42,863 nt of DNA, taken from the IMG/VR virus record IMGVR_UViG_3300020388_001444, positions 1-42,863 of that record. One strand, 5' to 3'. This stretch comes from a virus. Taxonomy: Duplodnaviria; Caudoviricetes. Each line of letters opens with the position of its first letter. Positions within the stretch are counted from its first letter, which is position 1. The notes below the pieces were generated by a model. That model ran no database searches, was not told where the DNA came from, and saw only the letters and a program-made list of their open reading frames with translations. The translations under genes were made by a program, and so were the position numbers. Positions 832 through 42,839 of this stretch are shown here, piece by piece.

Positions 832-845
832 ATCATTTCTGATCG

Positions 846-2057: not shown

Positions 2058-2058
2058 A

Positions 2059-2601
2059 TTATTGCTCTTTTAGTGACTGTTGAATGTCCTGAATTTCATT
2101 TCTTCGTGAATTATCACGGCTATTACCAAAGAAGAAATTCAATATTGACGCTACAACGGTGCCTAAAATAAAGCCCAAAATGGTGTCTGCAAAGCGTGTT
2201 GCGGTATCTGGAATGGTTAAAAACGTTATACAGCCTATGTATATAACCGTTGCAACAGACCAAAACCACGCATAGTAATAAATGAAGCGTTTAGAAAACT
2301 TATCATCTTGATTAAGTGCCTGTATCTGCATATTTCGGGCGCTTTGAGTATTTTTAAACGCTAAATCATCAAGCTCTTTTTCACGGTTTAATATGGTTTG
2401 CCTAAGCTCTTGTTGTAATGCACTCGATTGCTGAATACGGTTCATAGCCTCTTGTGGTGAACCGCAATTAGTGAGTGTTTGTGCCATATCAACAACTTTA
2501 GACGCGACCTTTGATCCATTGTCGCCCCCTATCCAACTGCCTATTTTTTTATCCAGGCCTGTGAGCTTTGCAAGGCCGAGCGCTATCGTAACTGGGTCCA
2601 T
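2059..2601 (-). CDS. Putative holin-like membrane protein
   Basis: Two C-terminal hydrophobic segments ending NFFFGNS and a QSARNMQ motif, as in 3TM/GTA-type holin-like proteins. Confidence 0.55.
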   Translation of the reverse strand: MDPVTIALGLAKLTGLDKKIGSWIGGDNGSKVASKVVDMAQTLTNCGSPQEAMNRIQQSSALQQELRQTILNREKELDDLAFKNTQSARNMQIQALNQDDKFSKRFIYYYAWFWSVATVIYIGCITFLTIPDTATRFADTILGFILGTVVASILNFFFGNSRDNSRRNEIQDIQQSLKEQ

Positions 2602-3042
2602 TTATGCCTCCATTGATTCGTAAGATATGCCACCAATCAGTTCAAGCTCGATATTTTCAATGCGCTTAAATTGACGAACAAGTGACTTAGACGTTGTAAA
2701 AGAACAATCAAAATATTCAGTTTTATCATGCAATTTTGGGAAATGCTTTTTTGCATCGCGTTTACCAAAGGTTTTTTGAATACGCTTAATTTCAGTAGGT
2801 TTATATAATGATATGGAGCGCTTGCGCCATACTTGCTCAAGGCATACAGGGCGTGACTCTTTTTTGTTAAACCATTCACCTTTTATGAAGTCATCAATAT
2901 AAACGCTTAACACGGTTGTCGATTCAGATTTTCTCTGACGTTGAACAGAGACTTTGTGATCACCTACAGAGAAAACAACATTACCAAATGTGCCTGCAAG
3001 TTCGTTTTCTATCTCTGTCCACTGCTCTTTTGTAATGGCCAT
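2602..3042 (-). CDS. Hypothetical phage protein
   Basis: 146-aa ORF tightly packed in the leftward operon. Confidence 0.75.
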   Translation of the reverse strand: MAITKEQWTEIENELAGTFGNVVFSVGDHKVSVQRQRKSESTTVLSVYIDDFIKGEWFNKKESRPVCLEQVWRKRSISLYKPTEIKRIQKTFGKRDAKKHFPKLHDKTEYFDCSFTTSKSLVRQFKRIENIELELIGGISYESMEA

Positions 3043-3052
3043 AAGCGCCCCG

Positions 3053-3667
3053 CTACAGTTTTGCTATATCGAGTGAAATTGCTTGCTCAATGCCGTTATC
3101 ATCTTGCTTGTAAAAGCGGATAAAGCGGGTTGAGTCAACCACGCCAACGGATTCCGCAATAATGTTCATGGCTTTAGCCCATTTGCCTGAATCGTCAGTA
3201 ATTTCGAGTTTACGCAGCGCTAAAATGCGTTGCGGGTTAAGTGAACCTTGCTTATCGGTATTGAACGTTTTGCTAACAATAGCCTTAATGTTTTGATTGC
3301 CGCCTTCGGTCCATTCATCTAGGCATTGATCAATTAATTGTTTAGCAAGGGTAAGTTCTGGGCCAAGTTCAATGCGTTCTTGCGTTTGCAGAGTTACTTT
3401 TAATTGGCTGTCAAAGGTGCGTAACATCACATTGCCTTTTTTACCGCCTAAGTTAACGCCATGTTCTTGAGCTAATAGCTCTATAAAGTCGTCGGCCTCA
3501 GCCATTAAACTTTGTTTAAACTCTGCCAGTGCTTTTTGCATTTCAATCGCTTTATCAATGGCTTTTTTAACAAACTCGTCTTTGATTAAATCGGTTTGTT
3601 TGATGTTAGCAATGGCGACTAAATTGCCTTTGCCGTCTTTTAAATACCCGTCAGGAACATTATTCAT
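3053..3667 (-). CDS. DUF3164 family protein (common in Mu-like phages)
   Basis: GY..D.KG.LV, GGKKGNV, AK.LID.CL.EW, W..AM..I.ES...RFY motifs. Confidence 0.85.
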   Translation of the reverse strand: MNNVPDGYLKDGKGNLVAIANIKQTDLIKDEFVKKAIDKAIEMQKALAEFKQSLMAEADDFIELLAQEHGVNLGGKKGNVMLRTFDSQLKVTLQTQERIELGPELTLAKQLIDQCLDEWTEGGNQNIKAIVSKTFNTDKQGSLNPQRILALRKLEITDDSGKWAKAMNIIAESVGVVDSTRFIRFYKQDDNGIEQAISLDIAKL

Positions 3668-5162
3668 TGTCTATCTCCACAGTTTTAGAATTAGCCTCGT
3701 TCATGCCTGCCATAAACTCATACTCCATTGCTGATTGGGCTACTTGCACCAGCGTAGAGTCTGAAATATCGGGGAATTGTGAGGTGATTTTTTGTTTAAG
3801 TTCGTCCAGGTCTTTTGATGCCTGAGCAAAATTAAAAAGCTGTTTAATGGTGTCGTCTGTTGCGTGATCAAACACATCTAACTCGTTGGTAAGCTCTACG
3901 CTTTCAGTTGGCTTTTTGGCAAACTCTGTTTTAGCAGGTGTTGCAATGCCATGGCCTTCGTCGGGCACATCAAGTATTGCTTCACCGTCTTTTGGTTTAG
4001 GTACACCGAGCTCTTGATAAGCCCAGTCTTCACCAACTGGCACAATACGGGCGGTTTCGCGCACGCGGGTTACGGTGTCGGTGTTAATTTCGCGTTTGTC
4101 TTTAAAAATGAATTTTGGCGGTTCGCCACCATCAAAATTTACCGTATGAAGCGAATTTAAAAGCTGATTGCGGTATGACGCTACAAGCGCCCTGTCTGAG
4201 CGTTGGTTGTCGCCTGCACGTTTTGCATGAGTTTCGCTGGCAGCACGTGCGCCGCCATTTTTTTGCTCTGTTGCTAAGGTTTGACTGGTTAAAGCTTTGC
4301 TTATTTCAGCATTACAAAAGTTAACCAAGCGCTCGGGCACTGGCTCGCCAGATAGCTTGCTTTCAATAATATCAATGCTTGTGTCATCGGGTATGGCGGC
4401 TATGCCGTCTTGAACAAGCTTAGCTAGCCCATCAAGTAAGTTATTTATGTCTGAATCTTTACTGCCTATTGGGTATTTACCCACAGGAAATGGAATACCA
4501 AAGCGCTCGCACAGCTGTACAAAAAACTTAAAGCCGCCATGCTTAAACGTCCATGGCCAAAAACAACTACTTAATAATGCAATACCATACGGGTTTTCGG
4601 CACTTGGCATATGGCGAACACACGACCAACGACGAGAATCGACTATTTCGCCCTGTGGGTTTTCACTGGTTTTTACTAATAACTCGTGATCACTATTAAA
4701 CGCAAAGCGGCTGTTACGCCATGTTTCTACGTATTCGGGTTGCCAATGGCCATTGCTTTTAATGTACTTGCCAAGGTGGGTAACACTAAAACCATTTAAA
4801 ATGGCGCTGTAATTGTGCCAGTCCATATCGGCCCATTCTGTATGTGGGCATGGTTTACGGGCAAAAAAGGCTTTAGCTAACTCATAACTTTTTAAACTGG
4901 CTGCGTCATCCCCCCCTGGTACAAGCTCGGTGTTAAAGCTAAATAAGCCACTGCGCAGTGAGCGCAACTCTCCAATAACGTGCGCATCACGGGCTATTTC
5001 TTCATAAATAGCGGTGTTTTTACCCGCACGGCGCAGTATTGGATCTGGATTTGGTAGCTCAGTAATAAGCGCTGTTAGGCTAGGGTCTAAGCGGTTTTGG
5101 TCAAACATACGGTTAAGCGCAGCGTATGCTTTTGATGTAATACGTGGCTTGCTTTTAAACAT
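3660..5162 (-). CDS. Portal protein (Mu gp29 / DUF935 family)
   Basis: NPYG..LL, F.ERFG.P..GKY, N.EISKA..QTL motifs; follows terminase. Confidence 0.9.
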   Translation of the reverse strand: MFKSKPRITSKAYAALNRMFDQNRLDPSLTALITELPNPDPILRRAGKNTAIYEEIARDAHVIGELRSLRSGLFSFNTELVPGGDDAASLKSYELAKAFFARKPCPHTEWADMDWHNYSAILNGFSVTHLGKYIKSNGHWQPEYVETWRNSRFAFNSDHELLVKTSENPQGEIVDSRRWSCVRHMPSAENPYGIALLSSCFWPWTFKHGGFKFFVQLCERFGIPFPVGKYPIGSKDSDINNLLDGLAKLVQDGIAAIPDDTSIDIIESKLSGEPVPERLVNFCNAEISKALTSQTLATEQKNGGARAASETHAKRAGDNQRSDRALVASYRNQLLNSLHTVNFDGGEPPKFIFKDKREINTDTVTRVRETARIVPVGEDWAYQELGVPKPKDGEAILDVPDEGHGIATPAKTEFAKKPTESVELTNELDVFDHATDDTIKQLFNFAQASKDLDELKQKITSQFPDISDSTLVQVAQSAMEYEFMAGMNEANSKTVEIDNE

Positions 5163-6894
5163 GATAGCCCCTTATTTGTTTTGTCACTTTACGGCTATTT
5201 ACACGAGGAACGCCGCCTGCCCCTGTACTGGCTATCATCCATAAAATAGCCAGGGCACAACTTAAATCATAGTGATGGGTTGTTTGCTTTTCTGGCCAGT
5301 TTTCAAGCTCGTCGAGTAGTAAGCGACACCGTGAATGAAAGGCAATTTGTGCCGGCGTATTGGTTACATAAGTTTCTAGTGAGCCTATACGTTCCTCTGC
5401 AGATATGGTTGCTGTAACACCACGTAAAGGCAGTGCTATACCTTGCTCTAAGCCTGTAGTAATAAATTGGCTACGCATAAAATCAAAGGCATTGTTATTT
5501 TCAAAGCCCCATACGCGGCAGTTATATTCTTTTTGGGCGCGAATTAAGTCGTTAAGTAAACGGCTAGTACCACGAACCTTACGGCTTTCGTATTCAACGT
5601 GCAGCTTTTGTAAATCTTGGGAATAAAAACCCACTAATATAGCGCTGGGATCGGCTTTTTCTGTTTTGCCCATACTTGGGTCGCACGCGCCATAGGGTAT
5701 CCATTCGTTTAAGCGGTCTACCCAAAAATCAAACTGGTAAAATATGGCTTCTTCGTCACTTTTGGCAATGCCTTGCATTTCACGGTTAAACTCACGTTTA
5801 TTAGCCGCCCACATACACATTAAATCGTAGAGTGTACGCACACTTGGCCAACTGGTTTGGGCACCTTTAAGCATTTGCTTTTTACGCTTTAACCAAAATT
5901 TAAACGAGGGTTTTTGCTCAGTTGAAACAGCCTCACCCTTTGCGGCAGCGCGTTTTTCAAAGCGTTTGTCGTCGTGCACCATTAAATCGCGGCACTCTTC
6001 CCATAAATCCATGCGTTCAGGCATTTGTTTAATGGCTTTAAAGCGGTGAACAATATGCCCTGGTGCTTCTTCGGCGCGGCTTATTGGGTCATCGTTATTT
6101 AAAACGGTATTTACACCTAAAAATTTAACGGTGCCATCGGGTGGGCCAAGGTATTGCACGGCTGCTTCTAAAAAGCGCCAACGGTTATCACGCTCTGTGG
6201 GCGATTTAGCCTCGGCATCGGTAATAATGTCATCGGATAGCAGTAGCTTAGGGCGGCTGGCACCATGGAACGTACCGCGTACTGACTGCTCAGCACCACG
6301 GCTTTCAAAGCGTACGCCTTGCGCTGTTACAAACTCGCCTAACTTCCATACAGGGGATTTTTGGCACACTTCGGGAAAGTCTAACGAAAGATTATTATTG
6401 TTAAGCAACTCAGTTTTAACTACCTCGAGTGTTTTGGTTGGCATTTTTGTTTCAGCGCCAAACAAAATTACAAAATCAATAAATTGGGTTATTTTAGCAA
6501 GGCCCAGGTCTTGGCAAATTTCAGGGTCTTGCAATAGCGCCAGCACCGCTACATACACAGGGGCAATTTTTACCCCAAGGGTACTTTTGCCCTCACCACG
6601 CGGGGCTACAAACCAGTTTTTCCAGCCATTTTTAAGCTTGAGCGCTTCGGGAAACCAGTTCATAAAATAGCTTTGGAATTCAGACGCTGTTTGATCGTCG
6701 TCAAGCCACATATGATGCGGAAAATACGTATAAACAAAAAACTCAAAATCGCCGCCAAGTACACGTTTACGACGTGCTTTAATTGCAGCGGGGCTTGGGT
6801 CTATGTTGCGCTCTTTTGCTTCTATATCACGGCGTAGTGAACCGGTTATTTGTTCTATTTCAGCTAAAAACTCGCGTGAATTCATATCGGCCAT
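5155..6894 (-). CDS. Terminase large subunit (Mu gp28-like)
   Basis: Walker A APRGEGKST, RP.LLLSDD Walker B, nuclease ACDPS; between small terminase and portal. Confidence 0.9.
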   Translation of the reverse strand: MADMNSREFLAEIEQITGSLRRDIEAKERNIDPSPAAIKARRKRVLGGDFEFFVYTYFPHHMWLDDDQTASEFQSYFMNWFPEALKLKNGWKNWFVAPRGEGKSTLGVKIAPVYVAVLALLQDPEICQDLGLAKITQFIDFVILFGAETKMPTKTLEVVKTELLNNNNLSLDFPEVCQKSPVWKLGEFVTAQGVRFESRGAEQSVRGTFHGASRPKLLLSDDIITDAEAKSPTERDNRWRFLEAAVQYLGPPDGTVKFLGVNTVLNNDDPISRAEEAPGHIVHRFKAIKQMPERMDLWEECRDLMVHDDKRFEKRAAAKGEAVSTEQKPSFKFWLKRKKQMLKGAQTSWPSVRTLYDLMCMWAANKREFNREMQGIAKSDEEAIFYQFDFWVDRLNEWIPYGACDPSMGKTEKADPSAILVGFYSQDLQKLHVEYESRKVRGTSRLLNDLIRAQKEYNCRVWGFENNNAFDFMRSQFITTGLEQGIALPLRGVTATISAEERIGSLETYVTNTPAQIAFHSRCRLLLDELENWPEKQTTHHYDLSCALAILWMIASTGAGGVPRVNSRKVTKQIRGYHV

Positions 6895-7400
6895 TAGTCG
6901 TCTAACTCCGTATCGAGCTTAGGACCAAACGCGGTAAGTATTTCAACAAATTCGGGCGCAAAGTCAGGGTATTTGGTTGACACAAACTTAGCCAAAATTT
7001 TAAGCACTTCGGTGGCAATGGTGCGCTTTTCAAGCTTTTTATTACCGCCCGACACTTTCATTACCTTGCTCATCATATCGGTAAGTGAGCTCAATATTTT
7101 GGTGCGTTGGTCAAGTGGCAGTGCTGCGCCTTCGGCTGATTTTAAAAGCTCAAAGGTTTCGTTTACTTGAATGGTAAATTCTTCAATAAAGTCGGTGGTA
7201 AACTCCCCTGCAGTGCCTTCGCTACGGCGGCTTGCTGCACGGGCTAAGTCCCAATCGTCACCGTTTTCTTTGGCTTCCATTTTCCAGCGTCGTGCGGTGC
7301 CATCGGCCACACTGTGCTTAATAGCGGCAACACTTAACGCAAGCAGCTCGGTTACATAGCTGTGGCGTACGGCGTTTTTCTTTTCAGCTGGGTGTGCCAT
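6894..7400 (-). CDS. DUF1804 family protein, probable terminase small subunit
   Basis: MAH...K..VR..Y, TARRWK....GDDWD.ARAA HTH motif; immediately upstream of the large terminase. Confidence 0.8.
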   Translation of the reverse strand: MAHPAEKKNAVRHSYVTELLALSVAAIKHSVADGTARRWKMEAKENGDDWDLARAASRRSEGTAGEFTTDFIEEFTIQVNETFELLKSAEGAALPLDQRTKILSSLTDMMSKVMKVSGGNKKLEKRTIATEVLKILAKFVSTKYPDFAPEFVEILTAFGPKLDTELDD

Positions 7401-8557: not shown

Positions 8558-10186
8558 TTATTCAAAGTTATTTTGAGTTTTTTTTAATGCGTTTAACAAA
8601 AACCAAATATTCCCTCTTTTTAGTGATGGATCTAAAGTCTTTTGATACTTATCTAAATAGATAATTAACTCATTAGTCACTTCTTTTTCTTTTTCTAGCT
8701 CCTTGGATGCACCTATAAAGTCCACTCTTCCATTTATAAAGGCTGCAAAATATCCAATATCTCGGCCTTTCCAACCAATTACTAATTGTTTTAAAGTTTC
8801 GATTTTTATTTCATGCAAAATCGGTCTTGTTTTATATCCTGCATCTGTATAAAGGCAAGAATTTTTGAATGACTTTCTCATTTCATTTATTAATTTAGTT
8901 AATTCTTGGCTTCTTTGATCTTTATAAATAGAATCAAGGTATCTATCTAATTCTAGCTCATATTTTTCTTCAACAAATGTTCGACTTCTCATCCCTTCAT
9001 AATTTTCAAACTGTTTTGAACTAGCAATATTATTAATTTTTTCAAAAGTTATTCTTTCATCTTCTTCTAAAAAGCCTTTTGAAACTAAAAATTCATAGTA
9101 ATCAAAACATTCAAAAAACTTCTGTACGACAACATTTTGTTCATTCAGTATGTAATTTTTAAGTTCTTCAGCACCTTTTTCAAAGTCTTGTTCTGATAAT
9201 GTGTATACTTGGCTATAAAGAAGCTTATCTAAATGTGAATCTTTCTGAGGAAGTGAACTTTCGGGAAAAATATTTTCGAAATTATTTTCCTTCCCCGTCA
9301 TGTATGAGAAAAAATTCTGGTGTTGTCTAAAAGAAAAAGCCTTGTAGTACTTATCATCTCGTTCAGTTATCTGCTCTTGGTTATCAACATAAAAACTTTT
9401 TGCGATAAAAATCCCGTCACTTATTATTTTTGATTTCGTTAGCTCATAGTCAATCCTAGAAAACTGTTCCAGATATAAAATAAGAGATTCAATGCGCTTT
9501 AAACTTCGTTTGAGAACCCTCAAATTGGTTAAATTGTTTTCTTTTATCAGTGTTATGATCAATTCTTCGTCTTTAGCTAACTTTTTTAACTCAGGCTTTA
9601 TAGCTAAAAATAACTCTGTGGGACTCTGCCTAAAAATAATTGTTTCAGAGAATGTTTTTTCAGTAAAGGATTGTTCAAGGTTGAGTTTTTGTTCATCAGT
9701 AACGAAAATAAATTTATTTTCGCTTTGTGTAAGTGTTAAACATTCTCCAATAATATGCTTTTTTAAAGAAGAACACTCGATACGCTCAATATCATCAATA
9801 ATAAATAATTCATCAGAAATATTTTTTAGCATATAGTGTTTTGCAGCACCTGCAGAGCCTTTAATAACGTTACTAATGATACTAGAACCACCTGTCACTT
9901 TCTCTGCTGTAGCAAGTAAATGTGTTAGATGGGTTACCCCTTTTGCATCATGCTTTTCTTCTAAATATCTTTTTGCTATTAATAAATCTTTAAAGTCATC
10001 TAGTGATGTAATGCCTAGTACCGATAGATATGTGATTTTATATTGGAATTTGGTTTTGAGTTCAGTTGTTAAAATTTTTTCAACATAGTAAGTTTTACCA
10101 ATGCCCCATCTACCAGTAAATATAATCATGGGTGGGTATGAGTCATCGTTGAATAGATCATTTATCTGAGTAGCGTAGTCTTGCAT
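8558..10186 (-). CDS. KAP-family P-loop NTPase (AT-rich moron)
   Basis: G.WG.GKT Walker A, IIDDIER Walker B, EK.F, N.R.LKR motifs; visibly AT-rich. Confidence 0.8.
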   Translation of the reverse strand: MQDYATQINDLFNDDSYPPMIIFTGRWGIGKTYYVEKILTTELKTKFQYKITYLSVLGITSLDDFKDLLIAKRYLEEKHDAKGVTHLTHLLATAEKVTGGSSIISNVIKGSAGAAKHYMLKNISDELFIIDDIERIECSSLKKHIIGECLTLTQSENKFIFVTDEQKLNLEQSFTEKTFSETIIFRQSPTELFLAIKPELKKLAKDEELIITLIKENNLTNLRVLKRSLKRIESLILYLEQFSRIDYELTKSKIISDGIFIAKSFYVDNQEQITERDDKYYKAFSFRQHQNFFSYMTGKENNFENIFPESSLPQKDSHLDKLLYSQVYTLSEQDFEKGAEELKNYILNEQNVVVQKFFECFDYYEFLVSKGFLEEDERITFEKINNIASSKQFENYEGMRSRTFVEEKYELELDRYLDSIYKDQRSQELTKLINEMRKSFKNSCLYTDAGYKTRPILHEIKIETLKQLVIGWKGRDIGYFAAFINGRVDFIGASKELEKEKEVTNELIIYLDKYQKTLDPSLKRGNIWFLLNALKKTQNNFE

Positions 10187-11012: not shown

Positions 11013-11411
11013 TTACGCCCCCTGCTTTGCTTTATGGCGTGCAAGCCATTGCTTAAGTACTTCAATAATATGCGGCCACTGCTGGGCGCTTTGGCTGAGC
11101 TTTTTGCCTTGTAAGTGTTTTTCACAAAACGCATCGCAGGCCTGTTTTGAATCGATATTTACAGCGCCTGCGCGGCTCAATTGGCCCCACAGGCTGTAAA
11201 TCATTTTTAGTTGTGCGGGTAACTGTGTTTTACCCGCATTTGGGTTCATAGCGCGGTAACGTGCAAGCAGTTGCTGTTGCTCAAGCTTGGTTAAACCTGT
11301 GCAGGTATTAACACGACCATCGCAAATGTACGACACATTAAGTTGGTGGGTATGTTGGTCGATACCCGCCGCCTTTTGTGCAATTTTGATTTGCTGAGTC
11401 AAGTTGCTCAC
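11013..11411 (-). CDS. Mu GemA/gp16-like regulatory protein (DUF1018)
   Basis: I.IA....GI, KMI..LW..L, IIE.LK.W..R motifs. Confidence 0.8.
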   Translation of the reverse strand: MSNLTQQIKIAQKAAGIDQHTHQLNVSYICDGRVNTCTGLTKLEQQQLLARYRAMNPNAGKTQLPAQLKMIYSLWGQLSRAGAVNIDSKQACDAFCEKHLQGKKLSQSAQQWPHIIEVLKQWLARHKAKQGA

Positions 11412-11767
11412 GCTATGTCCTCCAGGGCTTCAATTTCAAAGTGTGGCGCTTGGCCTATGCCAATAATTTTAATGCCCCAGTCTTTCATGCCGCTGGTATA
11501 AACCAGCGGAAAATCACGATAGATATTATTAAAACGTCTTGCTGTGTGGGCATGAGAGTTAATTTCATGCACATGGTGAATACTAAATAACTTGTCGGCA
11601 GCAAGTGTTGCAAAGGCCGCTTTAATGTTGCCATCGCATTTATCTATGAGCTCGCCTTGTGGGTCTTTTTTAGCAAGTAGGCTAAGCATTAATGCGTTTG
11701 TAACCAACGAGCTAAATGCTAAATGCGCCGTGTAACGTGATGTGTTTAATTTTATTGAAAATGCCAT
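11408..11767 (-). CDS. Hypothetical early protein
   Basis: 119-aa ORF with AAGGA SD, directly after muB. Confidence 0.65.
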   Translation of the reverse strand: MAFSIKLNTSRYTAHLAFSSLVTNALMLSLLAKKDPQGELIDKCDGNIKAAFATLAADKLFSIHHVHEINSHAHTARRFNNIYRDFPLVYTSGMKDWGIKIIGIGQAPHFEIEALEDIA

Positions 11768-11780
11768 GATTAAATCCTTA

Positions 11781-11808
11781 TTTAAATTATGTTTAAACGG
11801 CGTTTAAA
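11781..11808. repeat. Phased TTTAAA array 2
   Basis: TTTAAA at 11781, 11792, 11803. Confidence 0.75.
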
Positions 11809-13039
11809 CCGCTGGTTTATTAAGTACTGATGAAAAAATGCCATTAACTAACAGCTTGTCTACGGCGGTGTCTGGGTTTTTGTTGGTGTGGTTAAGCAAG
11901 TGCGGTAACAGGTTTTCAACCAGCTCACGGGCGTTACCTTCAACGCGTTTGTGCAGCCATTGCCACCATTTTGCATCATCTTGGGCGAGCTTTACGGTGC
12001 CTTCGGTGAGCTCTAAAAACAGGGTGCGAATGTCTTCAACGGTTATTTGGCCGATAGGTTTAGGCCAAAAGCATACGCGGCTTGCAATCAGTTCGTAGCG
12101 CTCTTGGGTTTGCAATTTGTCTACTAGTTGAATGTTGCCAACCAAGGTTACGCCTACAATGGCTTGGTCGCTTATGGTGCGCAGTGGGTCGAGCGAGTTT
12201 GGTTTGCATTTGTCGGCTTCGTCTAAAATTATTAGGCGGTCGGTATCACGCAGTGCTTGAATAATTTTTTGCATGTTTTTATACGCGCTTGGGCAGCGCG
12301 ATAAGCCCAGGGCTAAAGTTAGTTGCTCTAGCACTTGGGTACTGCTGGTTTGCTCACTGCCAGCAATTAAAATGGCCTCTTTGTTTTGGCGGCAATATTC
12401 CGTAATACCTTTGGTTTTACCCAGCCCTGCTTGGCCTGCAAATACACTAAAGCGTTTACGTTGGCGAGCTTGGTCGCATGCCATAGCAATAAGCTTAGAT
12501 GTACTGGTAGGAATAAAGCGCACATCACCGTATACAATACTTATATGCTTACGCTCTATGTTTGGTTTGCCTTGTTCAAGTTCTGCAGGGCAAATAAGTG
12601 CCCAAATATCGTGTAAGTGCTTAGTAGGCTTGGCGTTGTATTTACCGTTAATAAGTTGGCTTATTGATGCAGGGCTTTTACCCATGCTCACAGCAATACT
12701 GGCACTGGTAATGTTTTGGTCGCGTATTTCGGGTGATTGCAAACGCAAGCAAATACGCGCTGCCAGTTCGCGATCAGCTTTGTTGTACGATTTATTAAAG
12801 CCGTTACGTTTTTCAATGTCGGTAATAGCGGCTTCACCAAATAGCTTATGCCACAAAGCCACAATGACTTTTTCAGGGTTAATGGTGCATTTATTTGCTA
12901 GTACTTCTTTAACTGATTGCAGTGCAAAACCACAGTTAAGTTCCTCAATACTCATGCCTGTGGTGCTTAGCTCTTGGTTTATAAGCTCAACTCGGTGCGA
13001 TTGTTCTTCTGTATATGGGTGTGGTTGGCTATAGCTCAT
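11804..13039 (-). CDS. MuB-like AAA+ transposition ATPase with N-terminal HTH domains
   Basis: G.AGLGKT, IILDEAD, L.G, SR motifs; follows transposase; likely start ATG 13039 with AAGGA SD. Confidence 0.9.
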   Translation of the reverse strand: MSYSQPHPYTEEQSHRVELINQELSTTGMSIEELNCGFALQSVKEVLANKCTINPEKVIVALWHKLFGEAAITDIEKRNGFNKSYNKADRELAARICLRLQSPEIRDQNITSASIAVSMGKSPASISQLINGKYNAKPTKHLHDIWALICPAELEQGKPNIERKHISIVYGDVRFIPTSTSKLIAMACDQARQRKRFSVFAGQAGLGKTKGITEYCRQNKEAILIAGSEQTSSTQVLEQLTLALGLSRCPSAYKNMQKIIQALRDTDRLIILDEADKCKPNSLDPLRTISDQAIVGVTLVGNIQLVDKLQTQERYELIASRVCFWPKPIGQITVEDIRTLFLELTEGTVKLAQDDAKWWQWLHKRVEGNARELVENLLPHLLNHTNKNPDTAVDKLLVNGIFSSVLNKPAV

Positions 13040-14693
13040 AGGTTTGTTCCTTGCGTTCATTAGGTTGATCAAGTAATTCGTTTAGGTCGATTTCGTGCTG
13101 CGCCTGTGTTGGCGTTACATCAAAATCAAAAATGTTTATGGGTGCTTGCTGTGCCTCAATACCCTTAATAGGTGCAGCAAACTTAGTTACAGACTCAACA
13201 TCAATAATGCGGTCTTGGGTTTCTTGAGCTTCGATTTCACGGCGCTTGGTGTCGATGCGTTTTAAGCGGCCAGTTCGGCGTTTGCTTTCGGCTTGCTCAA
13301 TACGTGACGTAGGCACTGCATGCGATTTAGTTTTTAAGTTAGCGAACATTAAAAACTCACCGTTTAGCTTATAAAGTTTGGTGTAGCTGTCGTCGTGCAG
13401 GTCGTAGGCGGCAATGAGTTCTTGGCCATTAAACTGGTGTAAAAAGTCGGCGCTGTAATCACGTTGGTGCAAGCGAAAACGGCCACGACGAATGTTTACG
13501 GTTTCGCGTGGTAGCATCACAAAGTCGCCCTCTACTGGTGGTACGCGCTCTATGTTTTCGTCCCATACTTGCTGGCGTGTTTTGCCCTTAACTTCAGGGT
13601 GTTCGCTGTTGTGGTAGTCGTTTAAAAAGGCTTTAAACTCAGCTATCCATTCGTCTACAGTAGGCAGTTTACGTTTGCCTTGTTTAGCCTCTTTAAGTAC
13701 CAGTTGCTTATGGCGATCGTCGTGGTCGCGCCCGCAATACGTGCTAAAGCGTTTACCCACGCGGTCTTCCATGTGTAAAAAGAACCGCTCTATCCACTTA
13801 ACCCGTGCATTACCTGGTATGGCAAAAATAACGTCTATTTCAAACTGGGCGTAAAAGCCAGTTGTATCGTCGTTCATGAGTTTGTTTTTGTAGCCTGAGC
13901 CGTTATCTAGGTAAAACATGGCAGGCACGTTGTTATGCACTTTAATAGCGCGACTTATTGCTGCTAGCGTATCGAGTGTGCTTTCGGCATAGCCAAGTTC
14001 CCAGCCCACAATGCAGCGGCTTGCTACGTCTTGAAACGCGGTTAACTCAGCACGGTAAGGCTTACCTGTTTTAGGGTGCGCTAGGTATACGTCGAGCGTG
14101 TGGCCATCGCCGTTATACATAACGCCTGGCTTAATATTATTAGTAGAGCGCAACAAATGATCTTTATGTTTTTCACGGTAAAGTTTTGCACCCATACGAT
14201 ACGGGCTTTGTGGGCCAAGCTCGTGCGGCAGTGCATTAATAAAGCGGCGCACTTGGTGATGCTCGGCCTTGTAACCCTCTTTATTTAGTTGGTCGCTCAC
14301 TTGTGCGAAGCTTGGGCTGTTTGGGCTGTGATAAAGCTCAAGGCAGCGGGCAAGCCAGCTGTACTGGGTTTGTGCTTTACCTTTATGGTTAGGTAATAGG
14401 CCGTTAATGCCGTTGTCTTTGTAGGCATTGCACCAGTTATAAATGGTTGCACGCCCTGGTAACTTACCCAGTGCATCAATAGCGCTAATAAGTGTGCCCA
14501 GCGCTGTATTGGTGCGGTAGGCATTAACCAGTGCTTCAAACGCTTTTGGTAACGCGCATTCTTGGGTTAATAGATGGCGTACTATTACCGCCCTACTTTG
14601 GGCTTTTTTACGGGCTGTTTCGCTGGCATTTTGCCAACTCAGCTCGTTACCTGTGCTTGGTAACTTATTGTATTTTTGAACTGCAGGATGCAT
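13029..14693 (-). CDS. MuA-like DDE transposase
   Basis: GDGHTLD, YLDNGSGY and IERFF triad; YHN..H; Mu-type C-terminal domain. Confidence 0.92.
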   Translation of the reverse strand: MHPAVQKYNKLPSTGNELSWQNASETARKKAQSRAVIVRHLLTQECALPKAFEALVNAYRTNTALGTLISAIDALGKLPGRATIYNWCNAYKDNGINGLLPNHKGKAQTQYSWLARCLELYHSPNSPSFAQVSDQLNKEGYKAEHHQVRRFINALPHELGPQSPYRMGAKLYREKHKDHLLRSTNNIKPGVMYNGDGHTLDVYLAHPKTGKPYRAELTAFQDVASRCIVGWELGYAESTLDTLAAISRAIKVHNNVPAMFYLDNGSGYKNKLMNDDTTGFYAQFEIDVIFAIPGNARVKWIERFFLHMEDRVGKRFSTYCGRDHDDRHKQLVLKEAKQGKRKLPTVDEWIAEFKAFLNDYHNSEHPEVKGKTRQQVWDENIERVPPVEGDFVMLPRETVNIRRGRFRLHQRDYSADFLHQFNGQELIAAYDLHDDSYTKLYKLNGEFLMFANLKTKSHAVPTSRIEQAESKRRTGRLKRIDTKRREIEAQETQDRIIDVESVTKFAAPIKGIEAQQAPINIFDFDVTPTQAQHEIDLNELLDQPNERKEQTYEL

Positions 14694-16653: not shown

Positions 16654-17320
16654 ATTCTTGCGCGATGAACGTAATAGGTTAGAACTCACTCAAGCTGAGG
16701 CATCAAAAGCAATAGGGGTAGGAAAGACAACTTTTCTCCGTTGGGAAGCTGGGAATCCAATTCCTTCTGATAAGTTAATTGCCTTATCCGATATTGGCTT
16801 TGACATTAACTATGTCCTTAAAGGTTGCAAAGAAGAGCCATTACCAGCTAAGTCATCACAAAGTTCCGCGCTGCAAACCAGTCATGCTGATTTAACACCC
16901 GTGCCGCAATACGATTTAGCGGCCAGTGCGGGAGGTGGTGCTTTAGTTATTGCCGAGCACCCTATTGCACGGTTTGAGCTTTCAACGCGTTGGCTGCAAC
17001 AAAATAACTTACATAATAAAAAATTAACTGTGGTACCTGTACGCGGCGATAGTATGGAACACACTTTGTGTGATGGTGATTTAACCTTGGTATCGCTAAT
17101 TGATGACCCTGCGGATGCACGTGAGGGTGTATGCGTACTCAGGTTTGACGATGAAATTTTTGTAAAACGCATTCAGTACGACTTTAAAAGTAAGGGTTAT
17201 AAAGTCACCAGTGACAATACAGCTTACTCAGGTTTTTTTGTTGAAGTTGAAGATATTGAATCTGGCAGGTTCACAGTGCTTGGCCGTGTTGAGCGCGTAC
17301 TGCAAAGGACGAAGGTTTGA
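16646..17320 (+). CDS. CI-like repressor (XRE HTH + S24 peptidase)
   Basis: LTQ.E....GV......WE.G HTH; SAG cleavage site, GDSM Ser, VKR Lys. Confidence 0.92.
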   Translation: MTTFLRDERNRLELTQAEASKAIGVGKTTFLRWEAGNPIPSDKLIALSDIGFDINYVLKGCKEEPLPAKSSQSSALQTSHADLTPVPQYDLAASAGGGALVIAEHPIARFELSTRWLQQNNLHNKKLTVVPVRGDSMEHTLCDGDLTLVSLIDDPADAREGVCVLRFDDEIFVKRIQYDFKSKGYKVTSDNTAYSGFFVEVEDIESGRFTVLGRVERVLQRTKV

Positions 17321-18138
17321 TGGACTTAGATGAATTTTTAAAACTTGGTTTATTTGCCTCTTTAACTGTAGCGGGGACAATCGGTTTCGCAAGAATATTT
17401 TTTAAAGGTTACATAGAGCAAAAAAGCAAAAATCTTGCTACCAAAGAAGATGTTTGTGAAATTACCCATATTGTTGAGAAAATTAAAACAGATAATGCTC
17501 ATACTTTAGAAAACATCAAAGCTGAACATGCTAAAAAATTAGAAGAAATCAGAAAAGAAAACCAATTATTAGTTTCTACCGTAGATAAACATTTAGCTCT
17601 AAAAATTAAAATTTATACTGATGCAATAGTGGCTTTTACATCTTTAGGACATAATTTACTCGAACTGATCGACTCTCAAAATAACTCAAATACCTTTAAT
17701 ACTGCAATAATAAATGAATCAAAAATAATATCTAAAGTTAGAGTTGTTGGCTCTATTGAAACCTGCGTTACTGCTCTAGAAGCTATGGCAATGTTCAATA
17801 AAATAGCCCTAGAACTTCAAAATAAGCGAGTTAGAATCTTAGTAGATAAGGATAGACTTGAATTATTAGAGAAAAAGAAAACATTAGAAAAAAATGAGAG
17901 TGAAGAGTTAGATAAATTAATAGACTCACAACTAGCAGATACGATTGATATTTCAAATCTCTGTTTGGAAAGAAATAATGAGTTTTCCGGTTTAGTCACA
18001 CGCTTTGTGTTTTCAGCTAGAAAAGAACTTGGTTTAGAAATAAATGAAGCAGAATTGATACAGGCTGAAAATAATAATACAAAATCAGTAAATGAATCAT
18101 TTGAATCTTTTATAAATGATATGGAAAAGATGCAATAG
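17320..18138 (+). CDS. Membrane-anchored coiled-coil moron protein coupled to the repressor
   Basis: TGATG stop/start overlap; N-terminal TM; K..NLATKED...IT motif; AT-rich. Confidence 0.75.
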   Translation: MDLDEFLKLGLFASLTVAGTIGFARIFFKGYIEQKSKNLATKEDVCEITHIVEKIKTDNAHTLENIKAEHAKKLEEIRKENQLLVSTVDKHLALKIKIYTDAIVAFTSLGHNLLELIDSQNNSNTFNTAIINESKIISKVRVVGSIETCVTALEAMAMFNKIALELQNKRVRILVDKDRLELLEKKKTLEKNESEELDKLIDSQLADTIDISNLCLERNNEFSGLVTRFVFSARKELGLEINEAELIQAENNNTKSVNESFESFINDMEKMQ

Positions 18139-18330
18139 AGCTCCCTGATTTCGATCAGCCAATAGATTTATAGAAACCTAAGCTTTTAACTACGAAATAT
18201 TCAATTTAGAAGGATCTAATTATGAAACATCAAAACTCAATTGAGTCAGATCACCTCGATTCACCAAAAAATAAGCTATCTTCTTTATGTATGATTGCAT
18301 CTTATAAAACAGATAAAAATAAGAAACGAT

Positions 18331-19221
18331 ATGAACGATAAAATTAAACAAATATTTAAAATATCTTATGATACAACTGAAACTGCAGATCATACTATTG
18401 ATGCTGTTCTACTTGGCAATGCCATAATTAATACAGCCAATGTTTTGAAACATACAGATAAAATGCTAAATGGTGAGGACTCTACTATTGACCTTGAAGT
18501 GCAAGCAAACAGCGAGGGCTCTTTCGTCATTGAGTTTGTTACTTGGCTAAATGGAAGTGGAGTTAACCCTCTAACTTTACTTGGTTTTGCAGCTGTACCT
18601 ATAGGAATAAAAAGCTTAATGGATGTGTTGGGGGAGATTAATTCTAGACCAGTTAAAGCCTGTGTTGATATGGGGACTGGTATTTCGAGGCTTGTTTTTA
18701 AAGATGGCTCTGAAATTAAAGCTGATAGTAACATTGCCCGTTTAGTTGTTGACCGAACATTTAGAAAAGATCTTGAAAAAGTTGTGAAAGCACCTTTAGA
18801 AGGTGCTAAAGATGGAAAACTTATATTTAAAGATGCAAACGATGTTCAAGTATCATCCTTTGTGGAAAAGCAAGTCAACGACTTTAAAACCCCTACACGT
18901 GAGGTTGTTGAAGAAGTAAAAGAAGAGATAACAAATACAGAATTACGCTTTGTAAAAGTTAACTTTAGCGGCTCAAATGGATGGACAGCACAACTTACTA
19001 ATGGTGATAATATTAGCGTAAAAATGAAAGATGATACTTTTCTTACTAGAATTGATGAAAATAAACGTGTATCCAAAGGTGACTTATTCGTTGTAAAATT
19101 AAAAACTACAACAATATTTAAAACTGGCGCGAACCCTTCAGTTAGTCGTGAAGTGATTAAGGTAGAACGCCATCGAGCCGCTAAAGAAGATAAGTTAATA
19201 CCAGATAATAATGATGAGTGA
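18331..19221 (+). CDS. Hypothetical moron protein
   Basis: About 296-aa ORF (likely ATG 18331) with YD...H.ID and A..EGSF motifs seen in prophage accessory genes. Confidence 0.75.
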   Translation: MNDKIKQIFKISYDTTETADHTIDAVLLGNAIINTANVLKHTDKMLNGEDSTIDLEVQANSEGSFVIEFVTWLNGSGVNPLTLLGFAAVPIGIKSLMDVLGEINSRPVKACVDMGTGISRLVFKDGSEIKADSNIARLVVDRTFRKDLEKVVKAPLEGAKDGKLIFKDANDVQVSSFVEKQVNDFKTPTREVVEEVKEEITNTELRFVKVNFSGSNGWTAQLTNGDNISVKMKDDTFLTRIDENKRVSKGDLFVVKLKTTTIFKTGANPSVSREVIKVERHRAAKEDKLIPDNNDE

Positions 19222-19459
19222 AACTGAGGCATACTTTAGATTAATTTTAATGGCAAGCACTTTATTGTGCTTGCCTTATGTTTTCTTATATGTAACGCCC
19301 ATACTTGCTAAATTGTTCGTAGCTCGTTTTTTTCCACCAAAACATTTAGACGTTGAAATTATTAATGGTGATACGATTAATAAAAAGCGTATTTCTCTTG
19401 AAAATGATGACGAACTCATTAATGCTTTATTAAACATAAGGGATAATGTTAATGAGTAG
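19211..19459 (+). CDS. Small single-TM protein
   Basis: Overlaps upstream gene; N-terminal hydrophobic helix. Confidence 0.65.
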   Translation: MMSETEAYFRLILMASTLLCLPYVFLYVTPILAKLFVARFFPPKHLDVEIINGDTINKKRISLENDDELINALLNIRDNVNE

Positions 19460-19838
19460 ATTGTTTAAGAGCCCATTACTCATTGGTTTTGCTACGGGTA
19501 TAAATACGATTGCAATTGCGGTTATCCAAGTGAATGTTACAGGTGAAACCAATAGATTAGCATACTCAGCATGTACACCATTCATTTGTAACACAATTGT
19601 CTTTATTATTGATTGGTTTTTAGCTAAAAAAAACGTTAAAAGCTCAGAGCAACTTAGGATTGAGAATTTACTAGATGATAAAATTTCTATTGCTCAGAAA
19701 AACCTTAAAGAAGCAATCAAATATAATTTAGACGTTGATACCTTTAAACAGCAATTGACCAAATTAATGAATGCGAGAGCTAACGTTCCTGCACTTGTCT
19801 CAAGAGCTCAAAATAGAAAAAGGCAAAGCGACTCTTAA
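19446..19838 (+). CDS. Two-TM protein with C-terminal coiled coil
   Basis: Overlaps upstream gene; two hydrophobic segments; followed by a terminator. Confidence 0.7.
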   Translation: MLMSRLFKSPLLIGFATGINTIAIAVIQVNVTGETNRLAYSACTPFICNTIVFIIDWFLAKKNVKSSEQLRIENLLDDKISIAQKNLKEAIKYNLDVDTFKQQLTKLMNARANVPALVSRAQNRKRQSDS

Positions 19839-19865
19839 CTCGTTTATTAAATGCTATTAGATTAG

Positions 19866-19895
19866 AAAGGCCCCAAGCTAGGGGCTTTTTTTTTT
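19866..19895 (+). terminator. Intrinsic terminator between convergent genes
   Basis: GCCCC-AAGCTA-GGGGC followed by T10. Confidence 0.85.
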
Positions 19896-19918
19896 GCTAT
19901 ATTTCAAGGTTACGCATA

Positions 19919-20119
19919 CTATTTTTTGTTAATATTGTCGTAGAGGATACACTCTATTTTAGAAAGGTAAGCAGCAATCTTATTGTTCGACGCTGCGATC
20001 ATAAACCCAGAAACTAACTCTGGGTTATTTCGAGCATAGTCATCTCCAAATAGAGTATCAATAGATTGCTTGGCTTGATGCAATATTTGGTCAGTATCTT
20101 GTGCTAAATCTTTATCCAT
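19919..20119 (-). CDS. Hypothetical protein
   Basis: 66-aa ORF with AAGGA SD; ID..FG..YA..NPELV..F motif. Confidence 0.7.
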   Translation of the reverse strand: MDKDLAQDTDQILHQAKQSIDTLFGDDYARNNPELVSGFMIAASNNKIAAYLSKIECILYDNINKK

Positions 20120-20132
20120 TGTTTTCCTTTAA

Positions 20133-20561
20133 TTATTTGATAATTGAATCTATTAAATCGTCATCTAAATGTACTGTTGCTTGTCTTGAAAAAGAAATTT
20201 TCATTTTTACAACTGGTTCAATAAAATCGAACTCAAAAGATAATGATTCAATATTACCTTCAATCGTTGGTTCAGAATCTAATAATAGAGATATAGATGC
20301 AGCCAATTGATTTTCTATGTTTGAAATAGGTATATTCTTTAATGATTGGAGTTTCTGGCTCGAATAGTTATCTTTTTTCTCTTTTCCATGATCTTCTAGA
20401 ACGAGTTTACCTGTATCATCCTTGTAAACAGTTTGATTAAACTCAAAATGTACTAACTTCTCTCCCCTTGTTTTTAGCCTATAAAAATCAAGTCCGCCAA
20501 AATGAATTTCTACATCATCATTAAATCCATTTAATTGTTCTTTTAAATCACCAACATTCAT
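20133..20561 (-). CDS. Hypothetical protein (possibly two fused small domains)
   Basis: 142-aa ORF with GAGG SD. Confidence 0.7.
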   Translation of the reverse strand: MNVGDLKEQLNGFNDDVEIHFGGLDFYRLKTRGEKLVHFEFNQTVYKDDTGKLVLEDHGKEKKDNYSSQKLQSLKNIPISNIENQLAASISLLLDSEPTIEGNIESLSFEFDFIEPVVKMKISFSRQATVHLDDDLIDSIIK

Positions 20562-20687
20562 AATTAACCCTCACATATTTTAGATTCAACATTATAGAAT
20601 AAATATTACCCTATTAAGAAGGATGGCTGTAAGCGATTTTAAGCACCCTACTTTGTTTTGTAGCTACATTGCCTTACGCGCAATCCG

Positions 20688-20746
20688 TTTAAACACACTC
20701 AATCGAATTTAAACACAGTTTAAACATGGTTTAACTTGTATTTAAA
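20688..20746. repeat. Phased TTTAAA array 3 near the prophage midpoint
   Basis: TTTAAA 20688, 20708, 20719, TTTAAC 20730, TTTAAA 20741. Confidence 0.8.
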
Positions 20747-20747
20747 G

Positions 20748-21122
20748 TTAAGATTCTACGTTTTGGTAATTAAGCCATGTTTTATGAAATTGTTGTTTGG
20801 TTGTTTTGAACTCTAAATTTAAATCTGTTGCCATACTGAGGTTGTGCCTAAGGGTTAAACGAATGTACTCGGATTCTGTAATAACTTGATCAACATATGC
20901 CTGATTAAGGTCGGCTATAAACTCTTTACTTGGGTTTGACTCCAATTTATTGGTAAGTGCTACGTAGAGTTGAGGCATGGCCTCATCGGGATTTGATGAA
21001 AGGTATTTATCTGGATTGTTGATATATAAATACACACCTAGTCCAATACCAGACAAAAGAAAGTATGCAGCTATAGTAATGAGTGTTTTATTTAAGGTTT
21101 TTAAATGAGCTTGCTTTAGCAT
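20748..21122 (-). CDS. Single-TM hypothetical protein
   Basis: N-terminal hydrophobic helix; ATG 21122 with AAGGA SD. Confidence 0.65.
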   Translation of the reverse strand: MLKQAHLKTLNKTLITIAAYFLLSGIGLGVYLYINNPDKYLSSNPDEAMPQLYVALTNKLESNPSKEFIADLNQAYVDQVITESEYIRLTLRHNLSMATDLNLEFKTTKQQFHKTWLNYQNVES

Positions 21123-21172
21123 AACCAATCCTTGGTGATTTTGTGTTTATTTAATATAGTATTTTAAAAATT

Positions 21173-22009
21173 ATGTACAAGGGACTTGATGTGGAAACGG
21201 TTGATAAATTTTTAAATTTTTTAGTTAAATGCTTCTCTATTGATGAAAGTAGAGCATTACACAAGAACTATTCTTTTTGGTTTGCACTATTAACTCCAGC
21301 AATTATTGCATTGCTACTTGGTCTGAATTTAACTAGAGAGCTAGTTATACATGAAAGGTTCGATTTTGGTTTTACGGCTGTGCATTTGGATTCGTTTATT
21401 AAGTATTACAAGTTTCCTATCGGTCTTTTGCCTATATCAATATTGTTGAGTGTTATGGTCGCTCGGTTTCATGCATCTAAGCAAACAGTTCAACAAACCC
21501 ACCTCAAAAATTATTTTGAACACTTTTCGTTTTTTGAATCGTTCTGTAATGATTTAGAAAAGAAGCATAATGTAAATATTAATGTTCGGGCACTGTATTT
21601 GAATTTTTATAATAAATCGAACATTAATCACTTTAGCCCTGTTCCAAGTGATGACTTGATCCATAGTTATGTTTATACATTACAGCTACTTTCTGATGAA
21701 ATAGAGTGTAACAGTGATTTAGATTCTGTAGAAATAGCGACATATAAGGATCATATCCCTGATTTTGAAGGTGATTTCAGTCTCATAACCTTAGATAAAG
21801 ATAAAAGTAACACTTATTATTGGGCATATGAAATGAAGAACCTTGTAAATGAGTTCTATTCTTTCCCTGGTAATAGAATAACCGCATTAAAGTTTATGGA
21901 GATTGAAAATAAACTCACACAATCATTCACAAATTTAACTCGTTCTCTAGCTCAGAACTTCCCTACAGTTGATTTGGAAAGCTTATTATTTTTTGACATA
22001 AAGGATTAA
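21173..22009 (+). CDS. Two-TM moron membrane protein
   Basis: Two hydrophobic segments, H.S.QT..Q....NYF.H motif; AT-rich. Confidence 0.75.
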   Translation: MYKGLDVETVDKFLNFLVKCFSIDESRALHKNYSFWFALLTPAIIALLLGLNLTRELVIHERFDFGFTAVHLDSFIKYYKFPIGLLPISILLSVMVARFHASKQTVQQTHLKNYFEHFSFFESFCNDLEKKHNVNINVRALYLNFYNKSNINHFSPVPSDDLIHSYVYTLQLLSDEIECNSDLDSVEIATYKDHIPDFEGDFSLITLDKDKSNTYYWAYEMKNLVNEFYSFPGNRITALKFMEIENKLTQSFTNLTRSLAQNFPTVDLESLLFFDIKD

Positions 22010-41585: not shown

Positions 41586-42488
41586 TTATTTAGTCTTCAT
41601 AAAGTTAGATTTAACAAAAGGGTGAACATTTTGTACTCTATTGATTATTTCATGTAAACAATCATTTTTTGTTCTATTAGCTTTAATCTCTAGAGCAAAG
41701 TCGAACAATGAGTATGAATATGAGTTATTTATTTTATGATTCAGACCACCATATGCATGAACAATCGAAGCATGATTACCAACTAATTCATTTATTTTAT
41801 TTCGTTTAGAATCTAAAAAATTATTCCATATTAAACTTTTACCAGATTGAAAAACTGTTGTTAGATCATCATTCAATTTAGAATTTCTTATATATGTTGG
41901 AGTTAAGTCAATCGCGATTATCCCAAAGCCCTCATGTAAAGATATTTGCTTTGACGCCTCTTTGATTCTATTAAGGATTTTGTTTGCACTTTGTGGTCGC
42001 TTACAAGCAATATTGTATCTATTACCTAAATAATAAAAAAACAAATCAGGTTCTCCAAACTTTACATCATAACCAGCTTGTATATATTTTGATGCAATAA
42101 GGAGCTCAAATTGAGTATTCCTACCTTTTTTATTTGTTCCTGATAACTCATCAACATTATCTTTGGTGATCGACTCAATTATAACCTCGTTATGAGCACT
42201 TGAAAGCGTATTAATAATTTCATAGATCTCTAGAACTTCATGATAAATCAGCGTTCTTGGAAGGTTATCCCAGTTTTTTGATACTTGCTCTTCAAATAAA
42301 GTCAGCATTCCCCAAATTCTCGAAGATCGATTTACTTGATACTTATCTAAAAATGACTTAATTGATTCTATTATGTATTGATGATCGGTAACAACTTGTA
42401 TGTTAAAAGGTTTTTGCCTAAATACAGCCATATATACACTCATATCTATTAGAAGACAATCCTCAGAGGACCAAACAATGATACACAA
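41586..42488 (-). CDS. AT-rich moron, possible PD-(D/E)XK-fold nuclease
   Basis: FEL..A....G..V...EPDL.......IACKR; start may be downstream of 42488. Confidence 0.55.
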   Translation of the reverse strand: MCIIVWSSEDCLLIDMSVYMAVFRQKPFNIQVVTDHQYIIESIKSFLDKYQVNRSSRIWGMLTLFEEQVSKNWDNLPRTLIYHEVLEIYEIINTLSSAHNEVIIESITKDNVDELSGTNKKGRNTQFELLIASKYIQAGYDVKFGEPDLFFYYLGNRYNIACKRPQSANKILNRIKEASKQISLHEGFGIIAIDLTPTYIRNSKLNDDLTTVFQSGKSLIWNNFLDSKRNKINELVGNHASIVHAYGGLNHKINNSYSYSLFDFALEIKANRTKNDCLHEIINRVQNVHPFVKSNFMKTK

Positions 42489-42747: not shown

Positions 42748-42834
42748 ACTAAATTTAAAACCCGCAGTATTTAACATAATTCACTAATTCTAAAATCTAT
42801 CGTTATTTTTTCTAAAACCCAACGGCGGCTTACA
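42748..42834 (-). repeat. Right end with putative transposase-binding repeats
   Basis: TTCTAAAA at 42810-17 and 42788-95 (22 bp apart) and ACTAAATTTAAAACCC at 42748-63; terminal CTTACA. Confidence 0.7.
42769..42779 (-). other. Perfect XerD-binding arm inside the phage right end
   Basis: ATTTAACATAA is the reverse complement of TTATGTTAAAT. Confidence 0.6.
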
Positions 42835-42839
42835 CTATC
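42835..42839. repeat. Right copy of target-site duplication (CTATC)
   Basis: Identical to 628-632. Confidence 0.9.

Follow-up and report, generated by a model that had tools for sequence, protein, structure and literature searches.

Phages of a transposable family restricted to marine Pseudoalteromonas target the dif site of their host from its XerD side, by DDE insertion and in one orientation. All named relatives belong to this genus, in which the transposase is present in 19 of 140 species genomes. Mu-like phages are textbook random integrators, and the lysogeny of a whole family at one landmark means that transposition by MuA and MuB can be retargeted. The parts implicated in this retargeting are an XerD half-site borne on the phage end and a 70-residue domain of MuB.

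The window, the whole stretch of DNA that was analysed, is an IMG/VR record of 42,863 bases, a provirus together with short stretches of host DNA on either side. Positions 633-42834 are a complete transposable prophage of B3/KS10-like type, which starts 33 bp past the XerD arm of an undamaged host dif (572-599, plus strand, with the XerC arm at 572-582, the spacer at 583-588 and the XerD arm at 589-599). The termini of the prophage are TGTAAG at 633 and CTTACA at 42834, and a 5 bp target duplication, CTATC, flanks it on both sides, the left copy at 628-632 and the right copy, together with the right terminus, at 42829-42839 (both plus strand). The empty site is preserved in a contig of run X2, which joins position 632 directly to the sequence after the right duplication, and in L003 the same host allele carries a phage inserted 34 bp further on. 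Behind the TGTAAG terminus, the left end (633-832, plus strand) holds three putative transposase boxes, L1 (642-656), L2 (755-769) and L3 (818-832), proposed from repetition at both ends. Two right-end repeats that resemble them, R2 (42789-42803) and R1 (42811-42825), lie 22 bp apart on the minus strand (42789-42825) and are probably transposase boxes as well.

The prophage belongs to the Mu/B3-like phages. Gene hits identify a head-morphogenesis block of gpF, portal, large terminase and DUF1804 genes in B3/KS10 order (915-7400, minus strand), and the window also encodes Mor, GemA, Ner, a cI-like repressor and Mu-type head genes in KS10 order. The MuA-like DDE transposase (13029-14693, minus strand; PF09299, PF00665 and phrog_310) is 36-37% identical to the transposases of KS10 and TJ1. 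It adjoins a MuB-like AAA+ ATPase (11804-13072, minus strand) that matches phrog_296, has MuB filaments as its best Foldseek hits and bears an extra N-terminal domain at approximately residues 14-84. The gene after MuB (11408-11767, minus strand) encodes a 119 aa protein, the second candidate for a targeting factor. KS10 (NC_011216), TJ1 (MH766655) and Mu resemble the window phage in gene order, in MuA (at the 36-37% identity given above), MuB, Mor, GemA and Ner, and in having TG..CA ends with repeated boxes and a 5 bp duplication.

Left ends of relatives were gathered without dif in the query, using the gpF protein, the transposase and a left-end pattern that was run over viral, metagenome and genus collections; samples of approximately 400 genomes at the family, order and class levels added only two distant prophages, G350 and G530. 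Three sequences that match the left-end pattern without phage genes (L163, L167 and L181) were excluded, and the sample consists of established, surviving lysogens only. Of 74 distinct left-end junctions listed, 54 have dif upstream in the orientation of the window, five of which were flagged as nested in an older left end, and three more junctions were placed separately (G038 at 108 bp, L211 at 33 bp and L272 at 89 bp). The 52 non-nested junctions share one orientation and are all found on the XerD side of dif. Of these, 24 are no more than 36 bp from it, 43 no more than 150 bp and 47 no more than 400 bp, the farthest being at 3446 bp; a few follow stubs of 3-20 bp of an older left end. The 17 remaining rows comprise five left ends behind the right end of another copy (including G041, where that right end is on a separate contig, so that the link to dif is not established), six nested fragments on short or altered contigs, four junctions with non-dif flanks of only 8-88 bp, one sequence that is not a phage end and one clear exception, G059. 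The left end of G059 lies 185 kb from dif, where it interrupts what reads as an efflux-pump gene, and still faces the XerD side. No XerC-side insertion was found among the junctions collected. Near-random lysogenic insertion is a typical trait of Mu/B3 phages, not a taxonomic criterion, and this family departs from it, with 52 junctions beside dif against the one clear exception.

The dif site is left intact, at least 14 bp from the phage ends, and directly matching target duplications are found in 14 of the 23 prophages with paired ends. The transposase and MuB genes, the TG..CA ends, the 5 bp duplications and the intact dif together establish DDE insertion. Each genome has two dif-like matches, of which the dif homologue is one; it lies at 46-51% of the large replicon in four complete genomes. 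Both host dif sites are used by the family: the flanks of G054, G060 and G126 match the other dif of G059 and G155, which is probably that of the chromid. Pseudoalteromonas strains differ to an unusual degree in the XerC arm and spacer of their chromosomal dif, of which more than 20 variants were seen, with the XerD arm fixed. With a single exception at G155, lone exact copies of the 11 bp arm elsewhere in the genomes do not serve as targets. Neither of the outgroup prophages (approximately 46% transposase identity) is at dif; a sequence that by eye resembles 5S rRNA precedes G350, and G530 has no dif in the 128 bp of its flank. At L364 (G155:C11:978591-978604) a secondary XerD arm in inverted orientation, situated 1.1 kb from dif, has a left end 12 bp away, which cuts through what may once have been a pdif-like site.

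Close to dif, nine junctions lie at 20-25 bp, one at 26-31 bp, 13 at 32-36 bp and none at 37-45 bp. A jitter test for a period of 10-11.5 bp gave p=0.003, or p=0.01 with four homologous alleles collapsed to one, and a period of 12.25 bp fits as well as one of 10.5 bp. Beyond 36 bp there is no phase signal (p=0.92), so the signal amounts to two peaks one turn apart, a spacing that would match the expectation for a protein anchored at dif. Repeated use of the same site is evident from the left-end stubs, from host duplications of 20 and 270 bp between mismatched ends and from tandem prophages. Stacked left-end fragments of 3 bp to approximately 330 bp precede an intact left end in L112, L116, L159, L264, L275, L291, L362 and L017; these stacks seem to record the entry of new copies into a resident left end, and target immunity near dif seems weak.

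A second element of the host locus is the palindrome GTCCRATAC-N6-GTATYGGAC, at 496-519 in the window, 52 bp before dif. It occurs once per replicon, next to dif, in G020, G058, G065, G095 and G155, with an extra copy with two mismatches elsewhere in G058. In most cases it precedes the XerC arm by 41-43, 50-53 or 62-63 bp or follows the XerD arm at 71-77 bp; the gap widens to 300-700 bp at some second dif sites. The phased gaps suggest that the palindrome is the site of a protein working with dif. In hosts with the palindrome on the XerD side (L108, L110, L112, L114, L116, L118, L299, L305, L308 and L364) no phage end was found between dif and the palindrome, the nearest lying at 108-113 bp, just past it; either a bound protein blocks insertion there or splitting the two sites is harmful. 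A 413 aa tyrosine-recombinase-like frame lies approximately 0.5 kb from the palindrome on C2 of G020 and G065.

The right end of the window prophage contains a lone XerD arm, TTATGTTAAAT (42769-42779, minus strand), at positions 56-66 from the terminus at 42834, with its outer face pointing into the phage and with 11 of 11 positions matching the host XerD consensus. An earlier note on this DNA had drawn attention to it, and its description of the sequence stands: the letters at 42768-42780, TATTTAACATAAT, are the exact reverse complement of 588-600, and the arm lies 55 bp inside the right end. The note had also placed the arm between MuA repeats, which is right on one side only, as the arm sits immediately inside R1 and R2 with no conserved box beyond it. 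A MuA-like repeat does take the place of an XerC arm, as had been claimed in arguing that no complete dif is present; the would-be XerC position reads ATTTTAGAATT and overlaps R2. No XerC arm was found at a spacer of 6, 7 or 8 bp from the right-end arm: at 6 bp only 3-5 of 11 positions match, and no spacer is consistent across the 15 related ends described below. The motif was rejected as a full dif or pdif because the XerC arm is absent.

The window holds two exact copies of the 11-mer, one in dif and one in the right end, and 44 copies with up to two mismatches against 42.4 expected. The chance of an exact arm within 100 bp of either end is approximately 0.002 for the local composition. Whole genomes carry 6-23 exact 11-mers each (20 genomes), a number similar to that of a reversed control, so the case is one of position and conservation and not of the word itself. 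The weaker, 8 of 11 motif that had been pointed out in the left end (737-747, ATTAGTTAAAT) proved to be noise; it is present in only four sequences (the window's type, L001, L002 and L185) of 44 left-end rows, and was rejected as a conserved Xer site because it is not conserved across relatives.

Conservation of the right-end arm at the same offset in related ends, which the note had named as the check to make, largely held and extends across all MuB sub-clades. Right ends were collected with patterns covering R1 and R2 only; an initial pattern was too strict (0 of 5 found), the hits of loose patterns were mostly chance, and the majority of IMG/VR records stop short of the right end. Among 35 distinct right ends, the exact arm stands at 55-57 bp in 14, with one mismatch in one, at 68 bp in two and at 86 bp in one; in the other 17, among them many solitary ends, the first 100 bp contain no exact copy. 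The 15 ends with the arm at 55-57 bp all agree at 10 of its 11 positions, and 14 of them also at the last one; the spacer before the arm and the DNA after it vary. The two ends with the arm at 68 bp carry unrelated inserts, each of exactly 11 bp. Runs X3 and X5 supplied one further arm-bearing type of right end, whereas X9 and X12 yielded none. The arm occurs in every sub-clade of the MuB tree and was lost in several, and it is invariant across MuA identities of 53-97%, while the neighbouring DNA diverges. No XerD arm was found in the ends of KS10 and TJ1.

Among the 23 prophages with paired ends the arm is present in 17, in two of them shifted by exactly 11 bp. The six armless prophages have distances to dif of 32 (G077), 129, 432, 1072, 1306 and 3446 bp, which shows that insertion nearby does not require the arm; nor is the arm sufficient, given that G058 and G059 carry it at distances of 1227 bp and 185 kb. 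The second check named in the note also came out largely in favour, in that the family does insert beside dif, but its reading is supported in part only, and the arm is at most accessory to dif targeting. Arm-bearing prophages with a traceable duplication are closer to dif than armless ones (median 54 versus 752 bp, p=0.03), but the difference is gone (p=0.45, n=9 versus 2) without the hosts that have the palindrome on the XerD side; since no phage end falls between that palindrome and dif, the link between arm and distance is confounded by host. Right ends can be exchanged by recombination after insertion, and the present pairs of ends need not be those that inserted. The pattern of conservation and loss indicates that the arm is under selection yet dispensable for siting beside dif. 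Near dif, G057:C19, G066:C11, G155:C19 and G041:C45 carry right ends on their own and shortened elements, one of them 9.6 kb long; several have lone XerD arms further inside, and they are possibly non-autonomous derivatives.

MuB is 405-422 aa long in the dif-associated clade and 330-344 aa long in KS10, TJ1, G350 and G530; the KS10 and TJ1 proteins, of 330-331 aa, have one N-terminal HTH where those of the family have two. In an hhalign comparison the additional 70 residues at the N-terminus match the HTH-like domain of MuB itself (E=2e-4, probability 45%), and they are modelled as a similar helical bundle with the first HTH helix shortened (mean pLDDT 68.5). The domain is absent from all 150 phage MuB matches, those shown all beginning at residue 83 or later and none of the 150 records covering 80% of the query, and from four outgroup MuBs. 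A profile of the domain found it absent from 399 of 400 sampled class genomes (one genome unscored), with only the centre genome matched. A search of the PDB gave no significant hit, and the single Atlas lead (0.75) is to a Cro/C1 HTH cluster. Models and alignments indicate that an HTH-like domain was duplicated in this clade alone, and the extra copy is a candidate module for targeting. The 119 aa gene is present in all dif-associated relatives examined and missing from the two outgroup prophages; its product has no hit in Pfam, PHROGs, NCBIfam, PDB or Atlas.

We see an even chance that the right-end 11-mer is a binding site for host XerD that helps to bring that end to dif, with a phage protein as the likely core targeting factor and DDE transposition making the insertion. 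Host XerD would bind the half-site in the phage right end, and this XerD and the one at dif would be brought together through recombinase contacts or, alternatively, by both stalling the septal FtsK motor at their outer face. MuB, through its extra HTH-like domain, or the 119 aa protein would load beside the XerD-bound dif and pass to the transpososome the DNA that lies two to three helical turns off. Insertion would be made more efficient or more precise by the arm without depending on it, and the phage would gain a safe, non-coding site for lysogeny. The many independent offsets, the fixed side and orientation, the use of both dif sites and the arm offset of 55-57 or 68 bp are the observations in support. 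According to one study, Escherichia coli XerD alone binds a dif half-site with a KD of approximately 10 nM and halts FtsK approximately 5-fold better from its outer face (PMC2800217). A second source describes FtsK as activating recombination from the XerD side and XafT of TLC-phi as proposed to bridge two XerD molecules (PMC9226527), the latter a precedent for a phage protein that holds XerD.

A bolder form of this proposal, which we put forward tentatively as a little less than probable, is that the phage converts the segregation machinery into a target selector. End-bound XerD and dif-bound XerD would be held together, directly or on septal FtsK, and MuB with its duplicated HTH would send the lysogenizing jump two or three turns past dif, with lytic jumps remaining random. 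If true, it would give a Mu-like phage a life cycle of two modes like that of Tn7, in which XerD serves as a non-catalytic cofactor of transposition.

The arm could instead have a job separate from targeting, with phage proteins contacting XerCD or FtsK at dif; we consider this unlikely. The armless prophages that still target dif speak for it. The arm might, for example, be a one-way roadblock for FtsK that keeps the transposase on the right end. Its outer face points into the phage, and by the polarity given in the FtsK study (PMC2800217) FtsK heading for dif would meet the weak inner face while outward-moving FtsK would halt just before R2 and R1. However, a roadblock has no obvious need for 11 bp phasing to the terminus, and the left end is without a comparable site.

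About as unlikely, in our estimation, is a TnsD-like reading in which a phage protein (the extra HTH-like domain of MuB, the transposase or the 119 aa protein) recognizes the XerD-arm sequence itself, both at dif and in its own right end, so that host XerD is unneeded. The restriction of the duplicated MuB domain to this clade would fit, as would the targeting of dif sites that vary in XerC arm and spacer around a fixed XerD arm; in addition, the position of the arm in armless G051 resembles part of a transposase box. Yet the arm matches the host XerD consensus at all 11 positions, whereas the transposase boxes drift between sub-clades, and the 6-23 lone exact 11-mers per genome are untargeted save for the one case at G155. 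The shortened first HTH helix in the model of the extra domain also speaks against direct recognition.

It is very improbable that insertion is untargeted or merely biased towards the terminus, the copies beside dif being survivors and the arm a relic of the neighbouring dif. The sample of established lysogens, the distant G059 and the roughly half of right ends found without the arm would all be compatible with such a history. Selection of survivors would nevertheless have to place 43 junctions within 150 bp on one side of a 28 bp site in genomes of 4-6 Mb, in one orientation and in two peaks one turn apart, and a relic would not be expected to stay invariant at MuA identities of 53-97% while its neighbours diverge. 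Mu itself is reported to insert all over the genome and, when MuB is missing, to gain access to Ter only poorly (PMC7350765). Xer recombination in the manner of IMEXs, with the right-end site as attP, would account for the exact XerD arm and the closeness to dif and is scarcely credible, as dif is intact and at least 14 bp off, the arms are inverted, 5 bp duplications flank the TG..CA ends and no XerC arm stands at a spacer of 6-8 bp.

Insertion of DDE elements beside dif has a precedent, so dif-targeted DDE transposition was already known, and the earlier note was wrong to state that no hybrid of DDE transposition and Xer-site targeting had been described. The ISAjo2/ISAba32 group of the IS1202 family, the 'dif site hunters', inserts at dif and pdif, 5 bp from the XerC arm (PMC10132070; bioRxiv 10.1101/2022.12.17.520857). 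The group and the phage family alike use DDE transposition beside dif in a fixed orientation, with the left end towards dif and a 5 bp duplication, and both accept varied dif sequences and make successive insertions at one site. The differences are that ISAjo2/ISAba32 are one-gene insertion sequences of 1.5 kb fixed at 5 bp on the XerC side, whereas the phage has 42 kb and MuB and inserts on the XerD side, 14-150 bp (up to 3.4 kb) past the arm with helical peaks; the phage end also bears an XerD half-site, and the portions of those sources that were covered mention none for ISAjo2/ISAba32. Members of this IS1202 group are insertion sequences of 1.3-2 kb with a single transposase of 400-500 aa, a description that does not fit a 42 kb phage. 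The preprint calls the way in which DDE elements find dif a matter of speculation (bioRxiv 10.1101/2022.12.17.520857), and for this question the present system offers a site in cis, a candidate protein, a helical-phase prediction and hosts that are cultivable and non-pathogenic.

IMEXs such as TLC-phi with XafT are also phages at home in the dif region, but they recombine into dif with XerCD, whereas here dif is intact and the joints are made by the phage's own transposase; the XerC arm of TLC-phi is good and its XerD arm poor, opposite to the situation in the window right end (PMC9226527). The window shows no dif crossover with an attL/attR direct repeat of the kind that defines IMEXs, and it encodes MuA and MuB, whereas IMEXs lack an integration enzyme of their own. 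Unlike the dif-sited family, Mu inserts genome-wide in E. coli according to the report cited above (PMC7350765).

Safe-site targeting in the Tn7 family uses TnsD/TniQ with TnsC. The phage resembles this system in its AAA+ ATPase of the MuB/TnsC fold and in oriented insertion beside a conserved chromosomal landmark, and differs in the spread of distances in place of a fixed offset and in the outcome of a scan of 45 ORFs against Pfam and PHROGs, which gave no TnsA or TniQ/TnsD hit and included small unassigned ORFs. In its mode of action the phage is comparable to the IS1202 dif hunters and to safe-site targeting by Tn7; it belongs neither to the IMEXs nor to the IS1202 elements. A full-text literature search that covered few subscription journals returned no report of a transposable phage at dif, of dif-targeted DDE transposition on the XerD side or of an XerD half-site in a transposon end. 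The family may suit the delivery of large DNA to a safe site. It also bears on the idea that dif2 insertions reshaped Pseudoalteromonas chromids, put forward in a paper that describes prophages at or near dif2 in this genus, discusses them as possible IMEXs and may include some of the present ones in its Table S4 (PMC7858055).

Several further observations concern the host locus and the phage cargo. L007, L010 and L249 have no palindrome upstream of dif; small frames resembling repressors occupy the XerC side, and L010 and L249 also have an altered XerC arm. The locus is probably a filamentous prophage Xer-integrated in dif and co-resident with the transposable phage. Upstream of the left end in L017 and L268, a 25 bp flank is as in L184 and dif is replaced by a degenerate sequence ending in TTAGTTAAAT, which represents either a lost dif or an assembly error. 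An Rfam search gave no match, and KOPS number 0 and 1 in the prophage, too few to read a polarity. The sequence directly inside the right-end arm differs in every relative, which marks it as a cargo hotspot. Low-GC cargo genes lie at 8558-10186, 17317-22009 and 41586-42488 of the window, and one product of this cargo, a P-loop protein of 542 aa, has a match to PDC-S49, a candidate defence family (E 7e-19).
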